A model generated the notes under the pieces. The model was not told where the DNA came from. It saw nothing but the letters and a program-made list of their open reading frames with translations, and searched no databases. This document shows positions 12,190 through 56,732 of a stretch of 64,000 bases of DNA, one piece after another (positions within the stretch are counted from its first letter, which is position 1; each line of letters begins with the position of its first letter). The DNA comes from Eubacteriales bacterium. GTDB lineage: Bacteria; Bacillota; Clostridia; Oscillospirales; CAG-272. The position numbers and the translations under genes were made by a program. The stretch spans positions 3,957-67,956 of the forward strand of contig JAZQWA010000075.1 in the NCBI GenBank assembly GCA_045632065.1, in the 5' to 3' direction.

Positions 12190-13059
12190 ATGTGGATTGC
12201 AGATAATTGGAAAGAATATACGGTAATAGATACATCCTCAGGCGAAAAGCTTGAAAGATGGGGAAAATACACTCTTGTACGCCCCGACCCTCAGGTAATT
12301 TGGAAAACCGAGAAGAAAAATCCTCTTTGGCGCACCGCAGATGCAAGCTATAAGCGCAGCAGATCGGGCGGTGGAGCATGGAGCGATAATAGGCTTCCTG
12401 AAAGCTGGGTTATTTCCTACGGCGACCTTTCCTTCCGCATAAAGCCTATGGGTTTTAAGCACACAGGATTGTTTCCTGAACAGGCGGCAAATTGGGATTG
12501 GTTTGGAAATCTGATAAAAAAAGCAGGCAGACCGATAAAGGTGCTTAATCTCTTTGCATATACAGGCGGCGCAACTGTTGCCGCGGCAAAGGCTGGAGCT
12601 GAGGTTGTTCACGTTGACGCGTCAAAGGGTATGGTTGCGGCAGCAAAGGAAAATGCAAGACTGTCAGGCCTTGCTGATGCGCATATCAGATACATAGTTG
12701 ATGACTGCAAGAAGTTTATCGAAAGAGAAATTCGCAGAGGCAATAAGTACGACGGTATTATTATGGACCCGCCCTCTTACGGCAGAGGACCTACAGGTGA
12801 GGTGTGGAAGATAGAGGAAAATATAGACGATTTTGTTGCCTTGACAGCAAATCTCTTGTCGGACGAGCCCTTGTTCTTCCTCTTGAATTCTTATACAACA
12901 GGTCTTTCGGCATCTACTATGAAATACATAACCTCTACACGACTGCTTAACAAAAGAGAAGGATATTCCGAGGCAGACGAGCTTGGGTTACCTGTTGAGA
13001 ATACAGGACTTGCTTTGCCTTGCGGCTCGAGTGTCCGGGTTACATTTAGCAAAAAATAA
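12190..13059 (+). CDS. class I SAM-dependent methyltransferase (RlmI/RlmK-like, Methyltrans_SAM type)
   Basis: LNLFAYTGGATVAAA (SAM pocket) and IMDPPSYGRGP motif. Confidence 0.75.
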   Translation: MWIADNWKEYTVIDTSSGEKLERWGKYTLVRPDPQVIWKTEKKNPLWRTADASYKRSRSGGGAWSDNRLPESWVISYGDLSFRIKPMGFKHTGLFPEQAANWDWFGNLIKKAGRPIKVLNLFAYTGGATVAAAKAGAEVVHVDASKGMVAAAKENARLSGLADAHIRYIVDDCKKFIEREIRRGNKYDGIIMDPPSYGRGPTGEVWKIEENIDDFVALTANLLSDEPLFFLLNSYTTGLSASTMKYITSTRLLNKREGYSEADELGLPVENTGLALPCGSSVRVTFSKK

Positions 13060-13072
13060 GATTGGAACAACA

Positions 13073-13963
13073 ATGAAGGATTATATTATAAAAACCGAAA
13101 ATCTCGGTTTTACCTATACCGAAAATGACGATAGCGATATTGTCAGAGCTGAGGATATTCCTGCTCTTGCAGATGTAAATATCAACATTGAACGCGGCGA
13201 ATACGTGGCAATACTCGGTCATAACGGCTCAGGAAAATCCACCTTTGCAAAACTGCTTAACGTCATTTTAACACCCACTGTTGGAAAGATATATATTGAC
13301 GGTATCGACATTACGTCTGATAACTTTACCGAGGATGACGTATTCAATATTCGTCGCAAGGTTGGCATGGTGTTTCAGAATCCCGATAACCAGCTTGTTG
13401 CCACCGTAGTTGAGGAGGATGTTGCGTTCGGTCCTGAAAATCTTGGACTTCCGAGAGAGGAAATTCGTAGTCGCGTTGATTCTTCACTTTCTCTTGTTGG
13501 AATGACGGAATACAAATCTCATGCTCCTCATAAGCTTTCTGGTGGACAGAAGCAGAGAGTTGCCATTGCGGGTATAATTGCTATGAAGCCAGAAATTATT
13601 ATATTTGACGAGTCTACAGCAATGCTTGACCCAAGGGGCAGAAAAGAAATCGTTGATATAATGGAGAAACTGAACAAGGACGAGGGAATTACCGTCCTCA
13701 ATATCACGCATTATATGGAAGAGGCAGTCAGAGCTGACAGAGTAATTGTCATCAATGATGGCAGAGTATGCCTTGACGGTACACCTAAGGAGGTGTTCTC
13801 AAACGTTGAGAAGTTAAGGGCTATCGGACTTGACGCACCTCAGGGCAACGAGCTTGTCCTTGCGCTTCGCGACACAGGCTGTAAAATAAAAGGAGATTGT
13901 CTTACGGAAAATGAGTGCATAGACCTTCTCTATGACTTTATTTCCAAAAACAAAGGAAATTAA
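13073..13963 (+). CDS. ecfA1: energy-coupling factor transporter ATPase EcfA1
   Basis: Walker A GHNGSGKST, signature LSGGQKQRVAIA, Walker B IIIFDEST. First gene of the ecfA1-ecfA2-ecfT cluster. Confidence 0.9.
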   Translation: MKDYIIKTENLGFTYTENDDSDIVRAEDIPALADVNINIERGEYVAILGHNGSGKSTFAKLLNVILTPTVGKIYIDGIDITSDNFTEDDVFNIRRKVGMVFQNPDNQLVATVVEEDVAFGPENLGLPREEIRSRVDSSLSLVGMTEYKSHAPHKLSGGQKQRVAIAGIIAMKPEIIIFDESTAMLDPRGRKEIVDIMEKLNKDEGITVLNITHYMEEAVRADRVIVINDGRVCLDGTPKEVFSNVEKLRAIGLDAPQGNELVLALRDTGCKIKGDCLTENECIDLLYDFISKNKGN

Positions 13964-47220: not shown

Positions 47221-47223
47221 TAA

Positions 47224-47262
47224 AAATGGTAACCTACAATGATGCAGGTTACCATTTTTATT
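47224..47262. terminator. bidirectional terminator between pfp and the convergent operon
   Basis: AATGGTAACCT / AGGTTACCATT 11-bp stem flanked by A- and T-runs. Confidence 0.75.
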
Positions 47263-47266
47263 TATA

Positions 47267-49468
47267 TTAGTGGAAGAATTCTGCAACGATAGATATACCA
47301 CCCATAGTGAGTGTAATCGATGTTGCATTATTAAATGCCTTGTGTATTGCCGAGTTGGGATCGGCATTGTAAGGCTTCATACTTAAATCATAGAGGGTAG
47401 AGCCGTCATACCATAACGTTGTATGATTTCCTTTGGCATCATTTGCTGTAATGAACAGAGGTGACATACCTACTGTTGCAACTCCTGCAGTGCCTAAGGT
47501 GTAAATCGATTTCCAATGGGAGTTAGCCGACGACCTCTCTATTCCGTCCATATCGAAGAAGATAGTGCCCTTGGCGTCTATGCCCTTTATGACATCGTCT
47601 GCGTTCTCACCGTGGGATGACAGAATACCCTTGGCATTCATTTGTCCTTTGTCGTTTGTAATGCTGCCAAGTCCTGCTGCGTTAATCTTATTGTTCAAGT
47701 CGAAGAGCTGTGGCATGAATGCCGAAATACCCATTTGGCTAAACCAAAGCTCCTGACCTGTAAGTGCGGTTTCGCAAATAGAATCCATAACCTTTATTGA
47801 GGGGGATTTGTCAGCACCTTCGCTGTTAATCGCTAGTATCGCAGGTCCACCGCTTCCGTTGAAGTACGAATCTGTAACGTTTAGTGTAGAAGAGTCCATT
47901 ACTGTTATAAAGCAAAGGTAGGAGTCGTAGTTTTTCAGATTGGTGGAAACCATTCCGGCGCTGCCACTCAAACGATAGGTGACGAAGAAGGAGTTTTCTA
48001 TAACATTGTCTAATTTGGACTGCATATAATTATCTATGCCCATAAACATAAGTCCACCACCAGACACCAGGTTGCCGGTGCTGTCGATAAGATTGTTTCT
48101 GCTTGCATTACCAATGACAGACAAATTGTTTACTGATGCAACACCGATGTTAGCAGGCTTTGGATCGTCCGCATATTCGGTGCCTTCAAATTTAAATATA
48201 AAGCAAAAGGCATATCCAAAGCCGTAATGAAGCTCTGCATCAGGGCCAAAAACGCCGGGCGAGGGAACAATGGGGAACTTTGAAAAATCAAGAGTAAACA
48301 TGTTGCCCTGGATGGTCAGTGAATCCGTGCTTCTTCTGTGGAACAGATAGCTGTAATCCTTCAGATACTTGGTTCCTGCGGGAATTACAGTTTTTTCGCC
48401 AGAGAATGCATTAGTATATACAACCTCGGATGTCGTGGTGTGGAAGAAGCTATCTGGCACGTCCTTTGCGGTGAACTTAATGTCGTTATGAAGAACGATT
48501 CCGGATACGTTTAATCCAGAAATGCCGCGAGCAGCCTTCAAGGCTTCCCAATGGTTGTTTCCTTCAGGATTGTTATCAATAACGCTAAGCTGCCACGCCT
48601 CGTAAACGTTGTACGCTTTGATAATTTTAGCCTCGAGAACTATGGGCTTGAAGCCCTCATAAATATAATACTCTTGTTTTGGAATAACGGAAATTTTGAT
48701 TTCCTTTCCAACTGCTGAATCGCTGAAATAATAAAGTCCCTTATAGGTATCAACCTTTACGATTTCGGTGCCCTGATACTTGTATGATACAACATTGTTA
48801 CCAAGGTCCGACGTTTTAAGCGTGATATACTTAGAGTCGAAGAGCATGCTGATTTCAATGTCAGCGTAGAAGGTGTTGAGCAGTCTGATTTCACCGTCAT
48901 TGTCCAAAATGGCAAACTCGGGGTTTAATCTGAATTCATTCTCATTACCGATTACATACTTCTGACCGCCTACGGCAAATTCACCGGAGAAGGAGGGGTC
49001 ACCGTAATTGGATTTACCAGCCTGATTGTTCTTTGCAATAAACGACACTAGACTTGTGGGTCTGTCAAATCCTATTGCAATAACAGGGTATTCAAGGCCT
49101 CCCGCAAGGTCGGTAAGAACCTTGATAGGCAGTATAATTTCCTGCTTAATCTCAAGGTGGGGATCCATAAAGGAAATTTTAACCTGCTTTTCTCCGGGAG
49201 TCGCTGTGATGTCATCATCGTATTCAAATGTAAGGTCATCGTATGTGAAAACCTTGTTCAGTGACTCGTCGGTGTATATAGCGGTAGCTTGAATTCCTGT
49301 GAAGTCGACCTCTTCGCCTACGATATAGGTGGTTGTGATGGTAGAGTAGTCAATTGAAAAGGATTCAAGCTTCAAGGAACCCTTACCGCAGGATGCAAGG
49401 CTAAGCATTAAAGCGATTATTGCGATAGTAGCAATAACGTATTTTTTCAATGCGCAATTTTTTATCAT
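47267..49468 (-). CDS. large lipoprotein with an N-terminal Ig-like domain and a beta-helix-like body
   Basis: Signal peptide with lipobox LSLASC. The Ig-like segment is YIVGEEVDFTGIQATAIYTDESL..V. Later segments (NLSVIGNASRNNL, SGGGLMF, STLNVTDSYFNGSGGPAIL) suggest parallel beta-helix turns. Confidence 0.65.
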   Translation of the reverse strand: MIKNCALKKYVIATIAIIALMLSLASCGKGSLKLESFSIDYSTITTTYIVGEEVDFTGIQATAIYTDESLNKVFTYDDLTFEYDDDITATPGEKQVKISFMDPHLEIKQEIILPIKVLTDLAGGLEYPVIAIGFDRPTSLVSFIAKNNQAGKSNYGDPSFSGEFAVGGQKYVIGNENEFRLNPEFAILDNDGEIRLLNTFYADIEISMLFDSKYITLKTSDLGNNVVSYKYQGTEIVKVDTYKGLYYFSDSAVGKEIKISVIPKQEYYIYEGFKPIVLEAKIIKAYNVYEAWQLSVIDNNPEGNNHWEALKAARGISGLNVSGIVLHNDIKFTAKDVPDSFFHTTTSEVVYTNAFSGEKTVIPAGTKYLKDYSYLFHRRSTDSLTIQGNMFTLDFSKFPIVPSPGVFGPDAELHYGFGYAFCFIFKFEGTEYADDPKPANIGVASVNNLSVIGNASRNNLIDSTGNLVSGGGLMFMGIDNYMQSKLDNVIENSFFVTYRLSGSAGMVSTNLKNYDSYLCFITVMDSSTLNVTDSYFNGSGGPAILAINSEGADKSPSIKVMDSICETALTGQELWFSQMGISAFMPQLFDLNNKINAAGLGSITNDKGQMNAKGILSSHGENADDVIKGIDAKGTIFFDMDGIERSSANSHWKSIYTLGTAGVATVGMSPLFITANDAKGNHTTLWYDGSTLYDLSMKPYNADPNSAIHKAFNNATSITLTMGGISIVAEFFH

Positions 49469-49497
49469 TTTATAAGCCTCATTTTTAAATAAATTGG

Positions 49498-49992
49498 TTA
49501 ATCAGTCACTCTGCCGAGAATTTTCACCGTAGTTGTAATATTTGATCCGTCAGTAGAAGCGACTGTGACAGTGATAATTCTGTTTGGAACGAGGAACACA
49601 AAGGCGTTTATATCATCTCTGAAGACAATAGCATCCTCGTAAGCCTCCTCGTCAAATTCAAAATTAAATGATGATACGTCAGCGTTGTGAGGAAGCACGT
49701 CAAGATTGAGCTGTATAACGTTTGGATTGCTCATAATACTGCTTTCTTCCTTTGTATAACCACCCTCGGTGGTAGCAGGCGTAAAATCAAATATGAAAAT
49801 AGGCACACCGCTCCAATAGGTAGCAGCCTCTATTTTCTCGTTCTCACCGTCAAGAAGAGTAATAGAATCACATTTAATGCTCTGAACGTACACTATGCCA
49901 TCGTGAACCTTAACCTCAAGTCCGAAGAAGTTAACAACGGCAATAGACGCGATATAAACTACAAGGATTAGTATAATAATTGTTTTCTTCAT
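49498..49992 (-). CDS. membrane-anchored extracytoplasmic beta-rich protein (164 aa)
   Basis: N-terminal TM anchor MKKTIIILILVVYIASIAVV. The start shares one base with the upstream stop (TAATG). Confidence 0.55.
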   Translation of the reverse strand: MKKTIIILILVVYIASIAVVNFFGLEVKVHDGIVYVQSIKCDSITLLDGENEKIEAATYWSGVPIFIFDFTPATTEGGYTKEESSIMSNPNVIQLNLDVLPHNADVSSFNFEFDEEAYEDAIVFRDDINAFVFLVPNRIITVTVASTDGSNITTTVKILGRVTD

Positions 49993-51698
49993 TATTGTTT
50001 CTCCCTGTAAAATGCTTTAATTTTAGATGAGAAGGTAATAATCTTCAGCACCGCAAACAGAGCTGAGCCGATGCCAATCTTTACCCATGTTGTCTGGTCC
50101 ATGCGGTAGGACAGGAACAGTGCAAGGATAAATACTATGAAAGCAAGTACTATAAGAGTAACGCCTGCCTTCGATTCGTTGGGGTTATTTGCCTGCTCGT
50201 TGAATGTGGCGTATTGTTCATACTGAGGATTCATAATATCGCTCTCCACGCTTGCAAAAAGATGTCCGAGATAAATACAGTAAACCGTTACGCCAATCAT
50301 AATGGCATCAACAGGCTTCAAGGACGATTCAATTGCAAAAATATTCACGGTGAGCACAGTTCCGATAAGCGACATAACCATCGGGAAGAACAGCTTCGAG
50401 AAAAGCAGGATGATAGGCGGGGTAGGCTGAATCTTGTTAAGGTATGAGCTGGAGCCGTCTCTGCTGTAAATCGAGGCCATATCAATGTTATTCATCATAA
50501 GAATCAACAGAATAATCAGAACGTTAAAGCAGGTAGCCATCTGCGCGCCAAGAAGCTTGGTGTTCATTGCGGAATATATTTTATTGATAAGATATATCGC
50601 AATCGGCATCACGACGATAACTACTCCGCCAAACTTGATAAAGAAGTTGGATCGAAGTCCGATGGTAAACTCTTTCTTTACAGCTGAAATAAATGGGGAA
50701 CGCTTAACGTTTCTTTTTGCCTTGATGTTATTCTTTTTCTTGAACTCAAAGGGAGTTGATGCCATGCGGCAGAACAAGGGCTTTGAGCAAAGGAAGCAAA
50801 GCGCAAGCATTACTCCTGCAAGCACAAGCACCCAAATCAGTGTAGGAAGCGTGCGGGCGTGGAGAACGTGATTTGTAACTCCGATTGCTCTGCCTACAAT
50901 AAGCTCGGTAAATGCGTAAAGAGGGGCTGCGGCTACCTTATAGTTTTCAAAGAATGTCTTTACGTCGTCGAATATTGTGCTCTTGCTTTCTACAAAGTTA
51001 ATATCAGCTGGAATAAGTCCAATCAGATACCATACAAAAACGACAGAACCAATGCCGATCGCAGCATACAGAATATATTGGAGAATCTTCACTCTGTTCA
51101 AAAATACGTAAACGAACATAGAGGGAATAGAGAGAAGGGCCGCGAGAAGAACCGGCAGGAAGGATATTAACGCAAACATAATAAGCAACCAAGGATAGAA
51201 AATAATACTATACGACTTGATTATTCCGAATGCGATAAACATCGGCAGGGTGAACATAAAGCTCTTACGAAGCTCGTAAATATAGTAGGTTATCAGCTTG
51301 GAAAGAAATACGAGCGACGGAGTAGCCGGTAAAGTAAGAAGGACCGTGTTGTCTTTGGAAAAATAAAGCGATTTCATAAGTCCGATGGTATCGGTTACCA
51401 ATGAAAGAATAAGCATTATTCCAAACACAAAGGAAATAAGCGAAACGGGAAGTCCGCCGTCATTCATTGAGAATACCTGCAACAGCTTGATGTAATGGAA
51501 TATTACGGATACAACGGCTGTTACTGCAGCAAATTCAACGAGCATCCAAAAAAGCTTGGTGATAAGCTTCTTGGGAGAACGAAGGAATCCCATATCCATC
51601 TTTTCCTTAAGCTGCATTTTTACTAAGGTAACAAGCGCCCTCCATCCCTCACGGAAGGATTCCGCAAAGCTACCTTTTTTCTTTTCTGCTTTTATCAT
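49992..51698 (-). CDS. polytopic permease resembling the 'putative ABC exporter' family
   Basis: 568 aa with about 12 TM helices. ATGA overlap with the upstream ATPase fusion. The family resemblance is from size, topology and context only. Confidence 0.55.
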   Translation of the reverse strand: MIKAEKKKGSFAESFREGWRALVTLVKMQLKEKMDMGFLRSPKKLITKLFWMLVEFAAVTAVVSVIFHYIKLLQVFSMNDGGLPVSLISFVFGIMLILSLVTDTIGLMKSLYFSKDNTVLLTLPATPSLVFLSKLITYYIYELRKSFMFTLPMFIAFGIIKSYSIIFYPWLLIMFALISFLPVLLAALLSIPSMFVYVFLNRVKILQYILYAAIGIGSVVFVWYLIGLIPADINFVESKSTIFDDVKTFFENYKVAAAPLYAFTELIVGRAIGVTNHVLHARTLPTLIWVLVLAGVMLALCFLCSKPLFCRMASTPFEFKKKNNIKAKRNVKRSPFISAVKKEFTIGLRSNFFIKFGGVVIVVMPIAIYLINKIYSAMNTKLLGAQMATCFNVLIILLILMMNNIDMASIYSRDGSSSYLNKIQPTPPIILLFSKLFFPMVMSLIGTVLTVNIFAIESSLKPVDAIMIGVTVYCIYLGHLFASVESDIMNPQYEQYATFNEQANNPNESKAGVTLIVLAFIVFILALFLSYRMDQTTWVKIGIGSALFAVLKIITFSSKIKAFYREKQ

Positions 51699-53950
51699 AC
51701 GGTCGCCTTTTCGAGAGCTGCCTCGCTCTCTGCCTCCTTTACAGAAACGGGGGGCTGGGTGTTGCCGTCAATCATATTCATATAGAAGTTTTCAAGGGGA
51801 ATGCCGCTCTCCTTGATTTCCGCAACAGTCTTGGTGCAAAGAATCTGGCCCTTACGGATTATGGCGATTCTGTCGCAAATGTTCTCAACAACGTCAATAA
51901 TATGGCTTGAGAAGAATACAATATTACCTTTAGCGGCATGCTCTTTCATACATTCTTTTACCTGGAAAATAGATTCGGGGTCAAGGCCTGTAAGAGGCTC
52001 GTCAAGAATCCAAACCTTAGGATTATGCACAAGGGCAGACATAATGGTAATCTTCTGCTTCATACCGTGAGAGTAGGTCTTCATAGGATTGTCAATTGCT
52101 GCTTCAAGACGGAATCTTTCAATGTACTCAGCCATGCGCTCGTCTCGGTCAGCCTTAGATACGTTATAAAGATCGGCAATGTAGTTGATATACTCTCTGC
52201 CTGTAAGGTTCTCATAAAGAGCATAGTGGTCGGGAACGAAGCCAATCTGAAGCTTTGCCTCAACACCCTGCTTTTCAACATCGTAGCCTGAAACCTCAAT
52301 TTCACCAGATGTTATTGTCTGTATACCAACGATTGTTTTGATAATCGAGGACTTGCCTGCGCCGTTAGGGCCAAGGAAGCCGAATATCTGGCCGCCGTCA
52401 ATTTCAAGGTTAGCCTTGTAAACGGCGTAAACGTCACTTGTTGAGTATCTCTTGCAGAAATTACGAAGAATAAGCTTACCTTCGTTCTGGGGATTCATAG
52501 GCTCCTGCATATCTCTACCTGCAAGATGCGCTTCAAGAGCAAGTCTGTCAGCCTTAATCTTGCGATTCCTTTCAGTAAGAATTTCATGGGTGTCGGTAAT
52601 ATCAAATAACTGCTCAAATACAAACCACATAGCCAGCGCGAACAGGGCATATGCCAAACAATAAACAGTCTGATATACGGGGTAAAAAGTAAATGTTAAA
52701 TCTTTGATTGTAAACGTAGTAACTACGTCGCGAAGGTCGTCTGCCCAGCTTCCGAGGTTGGAAGCGATAAAGTTGGAATTCATAAAGAAGAAGTCGATGG
52801 TTGAATCGTAATTGACAAGCCAAGCATTTGCTGCAAGTACAATTATGAAATATCCAACGAACGCTCCAAGACATATAGCAAAATCTTTGAATTTAGGTCT
52901 TGGGAAAATCTTGAGAGTAAGGGTGAGAAGCGGAACGAGAGCAACTGTGTAGTGGTTAAGCCAGAACTGGATTGCTCCGCTTGACAAAAGGTTTGCCTTT
53001 TCTGTATTCGGCATCATCATTGCAAGTGCTGCTCCGAATATGCAGAAATAAACGGTGAAATAATGTAGTTTTTTAAGATTGAATATCAAGGATATAGGAA
53101 TAATGAACATTGCCGCTGCGCATAAGTGCAATGGCAATAAAGCAGGCTCCTTGATTGTAGAGAAATCATAGTTATAACAGAACGAAATCAAGGTTGCAAG
53201 ACTCATATAAATGAGGGCGTATCGTTTCTGTTGATAATCAAATCCCTTAAACAAAATAAAGGAAACAATAACAAGAACTACAAATCCAGCAAGACAGGCC
53301 TGGTGAGCTGTTGAAAGATTTTCTGCAACCAATCTATTGCTCAAGCCAAAAAGAACCTGAGGCGCCCAGCAAGGAATGGAGATAAGCGTCATTCCAATGA
53401 GACAGAAGAGTGATTTTACATATTGACTTGCTTTAAGCTTTATCGAGCGAAGCCTTATAAGCTGGAAGAGCGAGAGGCCGAGTCCGACACCAAGCTCAAT
53501 AGCAAGGATGAGATGTCTGTAATAGAAGGAGTTCGCAAGCTCGCCGTCAAAACCTCGGTTAAGGGTGGGCAGGGCAATGATGCCGAGTGCGCAAACCAAA
53601 GGGGAAATAAACCTTACAATAGGAACAACTGCGGGCGCTTTATCTTCAAAGAATGAGAACAGGCAGCTTGCAAGCATTACGGTGGGGATAAGCCACAGAA
53701 GCAGTGTGGTGATATATGCCTCTGTAATACCTAACGGTCCAAACGGGGAATAAATATTAAGTCCCACTGTGTCATATATCAACCCTCTACCTGCCAATGA
53801 ACGAACAGCAAACAGACATGCATAAATTATTGAAACAAGTCTTGTATTTGTTATAAACTTACCAAAAATATGCTTGTCCTTAAGAAAGAATAAGAATGAA
53901 GCTGTTATTCCACAGGCAATAACGGCTGAAAGATAGTAAATGAATGACAA
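51695..53950 (-). CDS. fusion of a large (~450 aa) polytopic membrane domain with a C-terminal ABC ATPase
   Basis: TTG start 6 nt after GGAGGAG. NBD motifs: Walker A GPNGAGKSS, signature YSHGMKQK, Walker B VWILDEPLTGLD, and H-loop SSHII. The membrane domain contains LPLHLC, reminiscent of YwaF/TIGR02206 (TMEM164-like) proteins. Confidence 0.75.
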   Translation of the reverse strand: MSFIYYLSAVIACGITASFLFFLKDKHIFGKFITNTRLVSIIYACLFAVRSLAGRGLIYDTVGLNIYSPFGPLGITEAYITTLLLWLIPTVMLASCLFSFFEDKAPAVVPIVRFISPLVCALGIIALPTLNRGFDGELANSFYYRHLILAIELGVGLGLSLFQLIRLRSIKLKASQYVKSLFCLIGMTLISIPCWAPQVLFGLSNRLVAENLSTAHQACLAGFVVLVIVSFILFKGFDYQQKRYALIYMSLATLISFCYNYDFSTIKEPALLPLHLCAAAMFIIPISLIFNLKKLHYFTVYFCIFGAALAMMMPNTEKANLLSSGAIQFWLNHYTVALVPLLTLTLKIFPRPKFKDFAICLGAFVGYFIIVLAANAWLVNYDSTIDFFFMNSNFIASNLGSWADDLRDVVTTFTIKDLTFTFYPVYQTVYCLAYALFALAMWFVFEQLFDITDTHEILTERNRKIKADRLALEAHLAGRDMQEPMNPQNEGKLILRNFCKRYSTSDVYAVYKANLEIDGGQIFGFLGPNGAGKSSIIKTIVGIQTITSGEIEVSGYDVEKQGVEAKLQIGFVPDHYALYENLTGREYINYIADLYNVSKADRDERMAEYIERFRLEAAIDNPMKTYSHGMKQKITIMSALVHNPKVWILDEPLTGLDPESIFQVKECMKEHAAKGNIVFFSSHIIDVVENICDRIAIIRKGQILCTKTVAEIKESGIPLENFYMNMIDGNTQPPVSVKEAESEAALEKATV

Positions 53951-54129
53951 AATCTGCTCCTCCTACCAAGGTGATGTAATGAATAGACATTTTTTAAATA
54001 AAATAACGCCTAAATATATTATCTGACTTTAACATTTTATCATATAAATATATAAAAGTAAATAATACTTAATAAATTTAATAAAATTTCATAATTTAAT
54101 GCCGAATAATGAGCTGTTTTGAAGAAAAA

Positions 54130-54174
54130 AGCGAGATTTACGTTTACCATGATAGATAAAACGCAAATCTCGCT
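54130..54174. terminator. terminator hairpin
   Basis: AGCGAGATTTACGT / ACGCAAATCTCGCT 14-bp stem (one wobble pair) with a large loop, flanked by A- and T-rich runs. Confidence 0.55.
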
Positions 54175-54180
54175 ATTTAT

Positions 54181-55002
54181 TTACCAGCTTGTGCTGTCAT
54201 CCTTGTTATTTTTGTCTTTTTTCTGTCTTTGCTCGCCGTAGCTTGAGCTGTCATTACTTGCTCCGGATGCGTTATTTGTTCCTGTCTCGTTAACAAGAGG
54301 TTTTCTGTTCTTATACATCTTAATTATAAGATAAACAGCAAATCCTATAAGGACAGCAGCAAAAATTATTGTAAAGATGTCGGATGCATCGATTTTCTTA
54401 TCAAGCACGTCATCCTCATCCTCGATGACAATTACAATAGGAATGTCAGTTGCTTCGGTAAAATCTTCAAGGGCAGAGTTTATGGTCGCTTCGGTGATAG
54501 AAATCGAAGTGAGATTGGTAACGTGGGAGTCAACTCCGCTTGGTGTCTGTGATGGATTGATAAATGATGAGTCGAGATTCATATTTTCGATCTTTTCTCT
54601 CATTTTGTCAACAACGATTGCAAGGTCCTTGTCAAGCGAGTACTCGTAGTATTCCTCGTTAACGTTGTTAAGCATTGTTTCTTCAAAGGAATCTCTTCCG
54701 CCACCAAATTTTAAATTAATATTATTATGAATATTATCACCAACCCAAGCGATAGAATAATATCCATCTCGTGCCTCATTAACAAGGAACACGATGAGTA
54801 TATTATCTTCCTCTGCACCAGAGACAGCGAACTCTTTTTCATACTGCTGGTTAGCAAATTCCTGCATAACCTTCTCTTCATAGACGGTTAAGCCGCCATT
54901 TGCAACGTTGGAAATTGAGCTGCCGAGAGAGCCGAATACATTTATAATCAGGAAGACTGCAAATATGAGTATGATGATAGGAATCATCATTACACCGAAC
55001 AA
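54181..55002 (-). CDS. two-TM membrane protein with an extracytoplasmic domain; same frame as the upstream Gly/His-rich ORF
   Basis: ORF track entry with a TTG start. The nearest ATGs (54990/54987) lack a well-placed SD. The reading frame continues upstream through RPYYGYGYGGGCLGS to a single TGA at 55048-55050. Confidence 0.6.
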   Translation of the reverse strand: MFGVMMIPIIILIFAVFLIINVFGSLGSSISNVANGGLTVYEEKVMQEFANQQYEKEFAVSGAEEDNILIVFLVNEARDGYYSIAWVGDNIHNNINLKFGGGRDSFEETMLNNVNEEYYEYSLDKDLAIVVDKMREKIENMNLDSSFINPSQTPSGVDSHVTNLTSISITEATINSALEDFTEATDIPIVIVIEDEDDVLDKKIDASDIFTIIFAAVLIGFAVYLIIKMYKNRKPLVNETGTNNASGASNDSSSYGEQRQKKDKNNKDDSTSW

Positions 55003-55047
55003 ACTTCCAAGACAACCTCCGCCATATCCGTATCCATAATAAGGTCT

Positions 55048-55248
55048 TCAGAAACCAAAGAAGAAGGGCATACCGTAATGTCTGTGATGATGGTGATGAC
55101 CGTGGTGTCCGTAATGACCGCCACCAAATCCGCCACCGCGATAAGAACCACCGCCGAAGCCGCCTCCGCGACTACCGCCAAATCCGCCACTGCGGTGAGA
55201 GCCGCCGCCGAAGCCGCCACCTCTTGAGCCTCCTCCGGGTCCTGCCAT
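55048..55248 (-). CDS. 66-aa Gly/His-rich low-complexity protein, or the N-terminus of a longer interrupted gene
   Basis: AGAGAGGA RBS upstream of ATG 55248. Translation: MAGPGGGSRGGGFGGGSHRSGGFGGSRGGGFGGGSYRGGGFGGGHYGHHGHHHHHRHYGMPFFFGF*. Confidence 0.55.
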   Translation of the reverse strand: MAGPGGGSRGGGFGGGSHRSGGFGGSRGGGFGGGSYRGGGFGGGHYGHHGHHHHHRHYGMPFFFGF

Positions 55249-55353
55249 AACAATTCCTCTCTTTCGTACATTTTAATATATATTATTCTAACATAAATAT
55301 CAGGTGTTTTCAAGTATTTTCTAATTTTGTCATATATTTTTTTGAAAAGGGGG

Positions 55354-55401: not shown

Positions 55402-55530
55402 TACTTATCAAGAGTGGCGGAGGGACTGGCCCTGTGAAGCCCGGCAACCTGTATTTTATATAAGGTGCTAATTCCCGATAGATGAGTTACGCTCGAGGCT
55501 CGGGAATAAGACTCCCGAGCCTTCGCTTTT
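55402..55530 (+). promoter_or_regulatory. SAM-I (S-box) riboswitch with terminator-type expression platform
   Basis: CTTATCAAGAGTGGCGGAGGGACTGGCCCTGTGAAGCCCGGCAACC...GGTGCTAATTCC matches the S-box core. It is followed by a GAGGCTCGGGA / TCCCGAGCCTT hairpin and CTTTT, directly upstream of metK. Confidence 0.9.
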
Positions 55531-55550: not shown

Positions 55551-56732
55551 ATGAAAAAAATACTTTTTACATCTGAATCGGTAACAGAGGGACATCCCGA
55601 CAAAATCTGTGATAAAATTTCCGATGCTATTCTTGACGAAATGCTCGCTCAGGATCCCGAAAGCCGTGTTGCTTGCGAAACTTTTGCTACCACAGGTATT
55701 ATTACCGTTATGGGAGAGATTACAACAAAGGCGCGCGTTGATATTCAAAAAATAGTTCGTGACACTGTTGCTGAAATCGGTTACGACAGAGCAAAATACG
55801 GCTTTGATGCTACAACCTGCGCGGTTTTAAGCTCTATTCACGAGCAGAGCGCAGATATTGCACTCGGTGTTGACAAGTGTCTTGAGGCAAAAGAGGGCGA
55901 GCTTGGTGATGATCTTGACACAGGAGCAGGCGACCAGGGCCTTATGTTTGGATATGCTTGTGACGAAACTCCCGAGCTTATGCCGCTTCCTATTTCATTG
56001 GCGCATAAGCTTGCAAAAAGACTCACCGAGGTTAGAAAGGATGGAACACTCAGCTATCTTCGTCCTGATGGAAAGACTCAGGTTACTATCGAGTACGTTG
56101 ACGGAAAACCTGTGAGAGTTGATACGATCGTTGTATCCTCTCAGCACGCTCCCGAGATTGATTCTGCAACGATTCGTAAGGATATTATTGATAAGGTAAT
56201 TCTTCCTACAATTCCCAGTGAGCTTATCGACGGAAAGGTTAATATTTACGTTAATCCCACCGGAAGATTCGTTATTGGCGGACCTCAGGGTGATACCGGT
56301 CTTACAGGTAGAAAAATTATCGTTGATACCTACGGCGGATATTCTAGACATGGTGGCGGCGCATTCTCGGGAAAGGATCCTACAAAGGTTGACCGTAGCG
56401 CATCCTATGCAGCAAGATACGTTGCAAAGAATATTGTAAAGGCAGGTCTTGCATCAAAGTGTGAAGTGCAGATTGCTTACGCAATCGGTATTGCTAAGCC
56501 TGTATCCGTAATGGTTGATACATTTGGCACAGCAACAGTTGCAGAGGAGAAAATTGTAGATGCTGTAAATCAGCTTGTAGATCTTCGTCCCGCTGCTATT
56601 ATTAAGAAATTTGAGCTTCGCAAGCCCATCTACAAGCAGCTTTCTGCTTATGGACACATGGGTAGAGAAGAGCTTGGAGTTAAGTGGGAAGAATGCGATA
56701 TTGCAGATAAACTCGCGGAACTTTGCAAATAA
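55551..56732 (+). CDS. metK: S-adenosylmethionine synthase
   Basis: [28 protein letters not shown] and [16 protein letters not shown] motifs. Confidence 0.95.

Follow-up and report, generated by a model that had tools for sequence, protein, structure and literature searches.

The ATGY enzymes (TMEM164, AIG1, GPC1, YwaF and LhaT) have only recently been recognized as membrane acyl transferases and hydrolases. According to the study of TMEM164, members of this superfamily carry a variable nucleophile (Cys, Ser or Thr) on core transmembrane (TM) helix 2 and an invariant His on core TM4; in the human protein, these are C123 and H181, located 58 residues apart. LhaT (YpjA), which represents another branch of the superfamily, adds acyl groups to the N-termini of lipoproteins at the outer membrane surface of the cell, taking them from a lipid-carried donor, the flippase for which is unidentified (PMC12345273). 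The characterized ATGY enzymes act on lipids or lipoprotein N-termini, not on glycans, and in the literature searched, no function has been assigned to the bacterial YwaF-type members. Here, we describe a four-gene locus in which an enzyme core of this kind is fused to an ATP-binding cassette (ABC) ATPase. It occupies the minus strand at 53950–47267 of a 64,000-nucleotide window (the whole stretch of DNA analysed, to which all positions refer) from a Eubacteriales bacterium of the CAG-272 lineage (Clostridia; assembly GCA_045632065.1, contig JAZQWA010000075.1, positions 3,957–67,956).

Gene 1 (51695–53950) starts at a TTG codon and encodes the 751-aa fusion protein. Gene 2 (49992–51698) encodes a 568-aa polytopic permease of the PF16949 family, and gene 3 (49498–49992) a 164-aa protein with one N-terminal TM anchor and a predicted extracytoplasmic immunoglobulin (Ig)-like (Big_2-like) beta domain. 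Gene 4 (47267–49468) encodes a 733-aa lipoprotein in which Ig-like modules at the N-terminus precede a beta-helix-like body, the last residue being an invariant His. Both enzymatic parts of gene 1 are of known kinds; the architecture of the fusion and the four-gene module are undescribed. A prediction made earlier from the nucleotide sequence (the original prediction) could name no characterized system with this composition, and none was found in the hidden Markov model (HMM) libraries, the Protein Data Bank (PDB) and the literature that we searched, the last of which contained no description of a YwaF/TMEM164–ABC fusion, of PF16949 function or of this cassette.

The acyltransferase core corresponds to residues 212–446 of gene 1 (52613–53317, minus strand). 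The PF14808 (TMEM164) profile matches residues 212–442 with 73.9 bits, against a cutoff of 25, and spans profile positions 2–213 of 217. The original prediction had taken the LPLHLC motif as a hallmark of the YwaF/TMEM164 family and had called for an HMM check, which upholds it at the Pfam and superfamily level. When the membrane part was scanned alone, TIGR02206 (“TMEM164-related integral membrane acyltransferase”) aligned only with residues 212–381, at 52.3 bits and thus below its curated cutoff of 75; gene 1 is related to canonical YwaF proteins and lies outside that subfamily. No match to DUF1405, the LhaT/YpjA profile, was obtained in gene 1 with E values up to 0.1 in Pfam and up to 1 in NCBIfam, and judged by these profiles the kinship to LhaT is at superfamily level only.

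Conservation across 97 divergent relatives is concentrated on a few positions of this core, including P273 (97/97), Cys277 (94/97), His333 (94/97), P340 (94/97) and G306 (93/97). The three remaining relatives have S, T or Y in place of Cys277, and His275 of the “PLHLC” motif is often Gln. Cys277 (codon 53120–53122) and His333 (codon 52952–52954) are 56 residues apart, compared with 58 for C123 and H181 of human TMEM164, and lie on the corresponding helices of the AlphaFold2 (AF2) model. We regard them as the predicted catalytic pair, an assignment made by spacing and conservation and not by direct alignment to TMEM164, and the acyltransferase domain is predicted to be catalytically intact. While gene 1 shares with the described ATGY enzymes the PF14808 match and a Cys nucleophile and invariant His at TMEM164 spacing, it differs from them in lacking a DUF1405/LhaT match, in its C-terminal ABC ATPase and in a 211-residue N-terminal extension. 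This extension (residues 1–211; 53318–53950, minus strand) is family-specific, has six predicted TM helices modelled with a predicted local distance difference test (pLDDT) score of 76–98 and has no Pfam match. The idea that it is a degenerate second ATGY domain was not supported when it was compared with the catalytic core using hhalign (probability 2.8%).

AF2 models the membrane domain with confidence (block pLDDT mostly 75–98) as 13 TM helices, with helices at the places expected for an ATGY core. Setting the nucleotide-binding domain (NBD) in the cytoplasm, the short inside loops have a K+R value of 8.8 against a D+E value of 1.9, and the outside loops a D+E value of 15.5, from which we infer an N-out, C-in topology that fits the positive-inside rule. 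In this topology, Cys277 would lie at the end of TM9 that faces outwards and His333 in TM11, nine residues from its outer end, both in the outer-leaflet half of the membrane, and a family-wide D/N-Y/F-F-F/Y motif (residues 386–389) would fall in a 44-residue external loop. Residues 447–492 (52475–52612, minus strand) form a long cytoplasmic helix and linker that lead from the last TM helix to the ATPase, with the modelled helix 424–476 extending into the linker. The linker is nearly invariant in the close clade and variable across the wider family. As neither the linker nor a GLNxYSPFGP loop is conserved beyond the close clade, their conservation was dropped as evidence of coupling.

The C-terminal part of gene 1 (residues 493–751; 51695–52474, minus strand) is an ABC-2-class NBD, matched by PF00005 (ABC_tran) with 96.5 bits over residues 513–653. 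The motifs that had been read as those of an ordinary ABC-2-type NBD are all present between residues 527 and 683: GPNGAGKS (527), YSHGMKQ (626), VWILDEP (646), TGLD (654) and SSH (681), that is, the Walker A, the signature, the Walker B with the catalytic Glu (Glu651), the D-loop and the H-loop. The best NCBIfam NBD models, DrrA (207.8 bits) and GldA (194.2 bits), both scored below their cutoffs, and no named equivalog could be assigned. The Gln of the Q-loop is replaced by Asp574 (“VPD”; 52229–52231, minus strand). An Asp at this position is common to all seven PF16949-paired NBDs that we inspected, from the loci referred to as L010, L011, L013, L019, L023, L024 (“VTD”) and L030, which indicates a trait of the clade rather than decay. 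In the fold search with the gene 1 model, the PDB matches were dominated by the NBD and were uninformative on the membrane domain; the fold and HMM results include NosF chains of NosDFY(L) entries, Wzt, TagH and LptB. That NBDs of this clade are normally stand-alone proteins, as was claimed beforehand, agrees with a genome scan using the fusion alignment, in which about 70 of the best 80 loci match only residues ~490–730; the scan was seeded on the NBD motifs, and these loci served as an outgroup and not for counting fusions.

The fusion recurs widely. A search with the membrane domain returned 216 clusters, and the 120 listed are almost all 720–800 aa long and carry both PF14808 and PF00005. 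Every one of these 120 homologues carries PF14808; they come from NCBI, ENA, JGI and Logan assemblies, and their names include “YwaF family protein [Clostridia bacterium]”. A HMMER pass over 1.84 billion representatives gave 191 relatives of the extended membrane domain, the best 150 of which comprise 54 complete fusions, about 35 stand-alone proteins of 450–510 aa and fragments; the canonical YwaF proteins of ~230 aa were not reached by plain phmmer of these representatives. In reference genomes, full fusions are hosted by Clostridia metagenome-assembled genomes (MAGs) from rumen, caecum and rectum, a Christensenella, Bacillales/Bacilli MAGs, Acholeplasmataceae and Anaeroplasmataceae. An assembly or annotation artefact joining two genes had been named in advance as a finding that would undo the original prediction, and the occurrence of split versions in two loci (L010 and L083) could be taken to favour it. 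The reading frame in the window is uninterrupted, the clusters stem from several sources with a near-uniform length and domain pair among those listed, and the linker is nearly invariant within the clade. We consider the artefact ruled out on these grounds, as next to impossible, and the fusion genuine.

The genes downstream of the fusion are equally constant. In 13 out of 13 loci long enough to be judged, the fusion is followed by a PF16949-type permease (~540–575 aa), an N-anchored protein (~130–175 aa) and a large lipoprotein. These loci are that of the window, L001, L003, L004, L006, L007, L008, L009, L081, L084 and L086, together with the split L010 and L083; they come from Clostridia, Christensenella, Bacilli and Acholeplasmatales and extend down to 24% identity in the membrane domain. 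The incomplete contigs L002, L005 and L085 agree as far as they reach. In the split variants L010 (Anaeroplasmataceae; TMEM164 match of 82 bits) and L083, the acyltransferase gene directly precedes a separate NBD gene, and the same downstream genes follow. Among the large downstream proteins, the Ig-type modules vary (Big_2, Big_3 or Flg_new) and the lipobox is kept. This gene-neighbourhood comparison bears out the view that the four genes form a unit with surface-exposed partners. The flanking genes are housekeeping genes that differ among genomes; in one relative with 53% identity, the cassette has ruvAB on one side and metK on the other, within a housekeeping region that is syntenic in other respects. 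These differing flanks point to a self-contained chromosomal four-gene unit rather than to a mobile element or a portion of some larger biosynthetic cluster.

Considering these data together, we propose, tentatively and with slightly more doubt than confidence, that the four genes encode one envelope complex in which an ABC exporter would supply or pull out a lipid for the enzyme tethered to it, and this enzyme would carry out an acyl transfer in the outer leaflet on behalf of the surface proteins encoded alongside. The ATPase dimer would be formed by two gene 1 subunits, giving a complex of the form (gene 1)2·gene 2 with the products of genes 3 and 4 attached. The dimer would power the single-polypeptide PF16949 permease, as in related two-gene ABC-2-type exporters, with each ATPase being tethered covalently by the long helix to a 13-helix membrane domain whose TMEM164/YwaF-type Cys277/His333 pair would sit in the outer-leaflet half of the membrane. 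The lipid that the ABC unit might then translocate across the bilayer or remove from it would be either the acyl donor or a lyso/acceptor lipid, and the tethered enzyme could transfer the acyl group at the outer surface by way of a Cys-acyl intermediate. The two surface proteins would act as client or as substrate-presenting partner: the lipoprotein of gene 4 and the Ig-like protein of gene 3, whose conserved helix probably docks it into the membrane complex. Such ATP-coupled lipid modification is supported by the fusion or adjacency of the two enzymatic parts, by their intact dyad and ATPase motifs, by the obligatory co-occurrence with the surface proteins and by the LhaT precedent of lipoprotein N-terminus acylation on the outer face with a lipid-carried donor. 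A narrower version, in which the ABC unit hands a donor or lyso-acceptor lipid to the ATGY enzyme, which then N-acylates or remodels the anchor of a dedicated surface lipoprotein, is doubtful.

Several observations weigh against the proposed lipid-handling complex. The acyltransferase does not intrinsically need an ABC partner, since a stand-alone 481-aa extended TMEM164-like member (~25% identical; L087, 7001–8446), present on 17 contigs, has an aldo-keto reductase and a methionyl-tRNA synthetase as neighbours and no ABC genes. Conversely, two-gene PF16949 systems exist that have neither the acyltransferase nor the surface proteins. The NBD part of the gene 1 AF2 model is poor, and no PDB relative of gene 2, a putative type V exporter, was found by sequence or profile. 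Finally, TMEM164 has been modelled with a portal to the cytosol, and the side on which the enzyme acts could differ from that deduced from the topology.

The two-gene systems also suggest another alternative, that of an ordinary ABC-2 resistance or export pump (like other PF16949 or YthPQ-type systems of the response to envelope stress) in which the acyltransferase and the surface proteins are passengers or neighbours with no functional link. The nearest NBD-only relatives of gene 1 (45–52% identity) are NBD and PF16949 pairs without genes 3 and 4 in Bacillus rhizoplanae, Halobacillus and various Clostridia. Those of Bacillus rhizoplanae and Halobacillus (L023 and L030) resemble the cassette in belonging to the same NBD clade, in the “VPD” Q-loop and in having a ~550-aa permease directly downstream, and differ from it in lacking the acyltransferase domain and the two surface-protein genes; they are themselves uncharacterized. 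YthQ of Bacillus subtilis may also belong to PF16949, which is not used as evidence here. B. subtilis YthPQ (YthP2Q) is a type V exporter with a single-polypeptide transmembrane domain whose function is not known, and it belongs to the sigma-W regulon (PMC11466899, PMC3498285). These relatives speak for a pump; the occurrence of the fusion in dozens of lineages, the adjacency of the two genes where it is split, the translational coupling and the strict co-occurrence of genes 3 and 4 over 24–100% identity are hard to reconcile with passengers, and we regard this alternative as very unlikely. As for the history of the cassette, an ABC pair of the PF16949 type has probably acquired an extended YwaF-like enzyme along with the two surface proteins.

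Gene 2 itself matches PF16949 (“ABC_tran_2”) with 31.9 bits as a whole protein and 43.3 bits in its N-terminal half (cutoff 25.7). Its hydropathy profile contains about 12–13 hydrophobic or TM segments and no visible large extracytoplasmic domain, in keeping with the earlier description of a separate 568-aa permease with roughly 12 TM helices. Neither the whole protein nor its halves matched an FtsX family at E values up to 10, and no NosY or ABC2_membrane match was obtained. Residues 109–136 and 408–437 (about 51291–51374 and 50388–50477, minus strand) have in common a short motif, S-L/I-Y-x-S-K/R-D ... P-x-x-P ... SKL. An internal duplication of gene 2 was not significant with hhalign (E 0.23), and the short common motif only hints at an ancient one.

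No Pfam family matches gene 3, and its alignment with the positional equivalents comprises an N-terminal anchor helix followed by a Big_2-like V-x-P-x-N-A ... T-D-G-S pattern, in keeping with the anchored beta-rich protein that had been predicted. The anchor helix, with the consensus MKKSxIxxIxxVYIASIxxVxFFG, is 48% identical between distant pairs, compared with 18% for the ectodomain. This is the reverse of what is expected of a passive signal anchor and suggests that the helix makes a specific intramembrane contact. In L010, the equivalent protein is likewise anchored, is 967 aa long and contains genuine Big_2 domains. A Bacillales MAG (L006) encodes two tandem gene-3-like proteins (12919–13380 and 13492–13947), one TM-anchored and the other with a lipobox, which share “YVEEIKIILPE”; this arrangement suggests a duplication with a swap of anchor type.

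The lipobox of gene 4 is LASC, with its Cys27 (codon 49388–49390) invariant in 40 homologues. Its AF2 model has a mean pLDDT of 86.4 and a predicted TM-score (pTM) of 0.79. Foldseek searches of the PDB gave weak matches to Fn3/Ig modules, pectin lyase A, GH87, AlgG and a capsule lyase, and the viral library gave weak matches to pectin-lyase-fold and tail proteins, with a template-modelling score (TM-score) of at most 0.31 in both. Big_3 and Pectate_lyase_5 matched below threshold, the latter within a bit of its cutoff. By sequence or profile, gene 4 has no PDB relative, the structure searches gave no close relative, and no enzyme family could be assigned. Together with the model, these weak fold and sub-threshold HMM matches make an Ig-like N-terminus and a beta-helix-like body a reasonable description, in line with the lipoprotein first proposed. 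In the same 40 homologues, the chain ends in an invariant His733, preceded by Tyr732 with a conservation of at least 90% (47270–47275, minus strand). In an Acholeplasmataceae MAG (L008), the gene 4 position is taken, from 12803, by a giant open reading frame (ORF) of more than 2306 codons that contains at least 13 Listeria-Bacteroides (Flg_new) repeats and runs past the end of the locus sequence.

A beta-helix partner of an ABC system recalls the nitrous oxide reductase maturation genes, whose accessory protein NosD is a beta-helix protein. NosDFYL consists of an ABC ATPase, a six-TM permease, a periplasmic accessory protein and a lipoprotein (PMC8457098). It is the nearest architectural analogue of the cassette, by analogy only: in both, an ABC-2-class ATPase, a permease, an extracytoplasmic accessory protein and a lipoprotein are encoded together, and NosF is among the fold matches of the NBD, whereas NosDFYL has no acyltransferase, and in the cassette, gene 4 and gene 2 show no family match to NosD and NosY, there is no copper or N2O context and the host is a monoderm anaerobe. 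The analogy leads to an alternative in which no lipid is moved. The ATP cycle of the NBD would act through gene 2 and the gene 3 helix to switch or load gene 4, while the acyltransferase acts locally, much as NosFY acts on NosD/NosL and FtsEX on hydrolase activators. Partners that are always extracytoplasmic, of which one has a body of beta-helix type and the other is held by a conserved TM anchor, would suit such mechanotransmission, and besides the NosF matches, the clade-wide replacement of Gln by Asp in the Q-loop hints at an unusual coupling. Against it, gene 4 matches neither NosD nor Beta_helix nor a family of FtsX partners, gene 2 has neither an FtsX domain nor a large extracytoplasmic domain in its hydropathy profile, and the fusion of a (predicted) catalytically intact acyltransferase to the motor is left unexplained. 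We consider this alternative unlikely.

The original prediction had drawn the analogy with the MacB, FtsEX and Lol mechanotransmission systems, and this is the part of it that fails at the family level. Type VII systems such as MacB, LolCDE and FtsEX do resemble the cassette in tying an ABC ATPase to outer-face events on lipoproteins or surface proteins; gene 2, however, lacks the FtsX fold and the large periplasmic domain, and the NBD belongs to the DrrA/GldA class of ABC-2 ATPases and not to that of MacB, LolD or FtsE. A permease of this type (as in MacB, LolCDE, FtsEX or BceAB) was rejected for gene 2 given the absence of an FtsX match. Another partial likeness is found in LptB2FGC, in which the N-terminal TM helix of a small bitopic partner (LptC, comparable to gene 3) is followed by a beta-rich outer domain and the partner accompanies an ABC unit that handles lipid, as the unit of the cassette would, and LptB is among the NBD matches. 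In contrast to LptB2FGC, the cassette has no LptC, LptF or LptG match, the gene 3 ectodomain appears Ig-like by sequence rather than a beta-jellyroll, and the host is, as far as known, without an outer membrane. An anti-phage defence system was also rejected, as PADLOC gave generic ABC/AAA cross-matches on the NBD only and nothing for genes 2–4.

The weak resemblance of gene 4 to pectin lyase, GH87, AlgG and capsule-lyase beta-helices, with Pectate_lyase_5 so close to its cutoff, might instead point to the export of a lipid-linked glycan combined with O-acylation, as in Wzm/Wzt or TarGH systems. The YwaF-like domain would then acylate the glycan or its anchor, and gene 4 would bind or trim the polymer; the class of the NBD, matched by the glycan exporters Wzt and TagH and by DrrA/GldA in the fold and HMM results, is compatible with this. 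However, the cassette, set between variable housekeeping flanks, is not accompanied by glycosyltransferase, polymerase or sugar-nucleotide genes, the fold matches of gene 4 are weak and the known substrates of ATGY enzymes are lipids and lipoprotein N-termini. Glycan export therefore seems quite unlikely.

With its hard-wired motor and constant surface partners, the fusion provides a concrete hypothesis on how an active site in the outer leaflet is supplied with acyl donors or acceptors, the question left open by the work on LhaT. The cassette also offers the first functional clue for the unstudied PF16949 permease family and for a family of surface beta-helix lipoproteins that occurs in uncultured Clostridia of gut and rumen, Christensenella, Bacilli and Acholeplasmatales. 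Most of the hosts have not been cultured. A hard-wired pairing of acyltransferase and motor would be unexpected to specialists in envelope lipids, lipoproteins or ABC transporters. The acylation state of lipoproteins controls their recognition by TLR2, through which any role in anchor remodelling would matter for host–microbe interaction. Were the narrower version true, in which the ATGY enzyme acts on the anchor of the dedicated lipoprotein, gene 1 would be the first ABC-coupled ATGY member, and the cassette would represent a new way of modifying lipoproteins or lipid anchors in Bacillota and Mollicutes-like bacteria, groups in which N-acylation is observed without an lnt-like gene (PMC3850990).

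The layout of the operon corresponds to its first description: four tightly coupled ORFs on the minus strand, whose coordinates, overlaps, gap and TTG start can all be read directly in the sequence. The start of gene 2 overlaps the stop of gene 1 (ATGA, 51695–51698), genes 2 and 3 overlap in TAATG at 49992, and a 29-nt gap separates genes 3 and 4, with GAGG preceding the gene 4 ATG at 49468. A putative ribosome-binding site, GGAGGAG (53957–53963, minus strand), is located 6 nt before the TTG codon of gene 1 (53948–53950). The position of this codon coincides with the aligned N-termini of 29 homologues, which supports the TTG start. About 85 nt upstream of the start, in the AT-rich spacer, a promoter-like site with an extended -10 (TTTACT, 17 nt, TG-TAAAAT; 54034–54062, minus strand) scored 9/12 in a consensus scan and has a TG extension; it is a consensus match only.

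The operon had been described as lying between two bidirectional terminators. Strong hairpins are indeed present on both flanks, and only the downstream one is clearly bidirectional. That hairpin (47222–47259, both strands), located between the convergent pfk and gene 4, folds with -27.1 kcal/mol on the minus strand (z -9.4) and -21 kcal/mol on the plus strand (z -7.4) and has U-runs on both sides, features that together with its convergent position identify it as a bidirectional intrinsic terminator. The upstream terminator (54125–54174, minus strand) consists of a hairpin at 54130–54174 (-25 kcal/mol, z -7.8) followed by T6, and the hairpin shows no sign of bidirectionality. It ends the preceding same-strand gene (54181–55002), ~180 nt upstream of gene 1, and marks the upstream boundary of the operon. 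A simple terminator scan missed both hairpins because their loops and stems lie outside its limits.

The gene that ends at this upstream terminator (54181–55002, minus strand), with which an ORF at 54990–55313 (minus strand) overlaps, encodes an acidic protein of 273 aa that begins and ends with TM segments and matches no Pfam family; the strong terminator separates this gene from the operon. The syntenic locus L081 lacks the gene: there, ruvB lies directly beside the cassette and metK on the other side, which points to a small local rearrangement. In the window, an S-adenosylmethionine (SAM) riboswitch (RF00162, 76.6 bits; 55402–55523, plus strand) followed by a terminator-like hairpin is situated directly upstream of metK (55551–56732) and is an ordinary S-box leader. 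Among the other loci, L084 contains a gene of the KwaA (Kiwa defence) family (264–836) ~6 kb upstream of the cassette, probably a coincidental neighbour.

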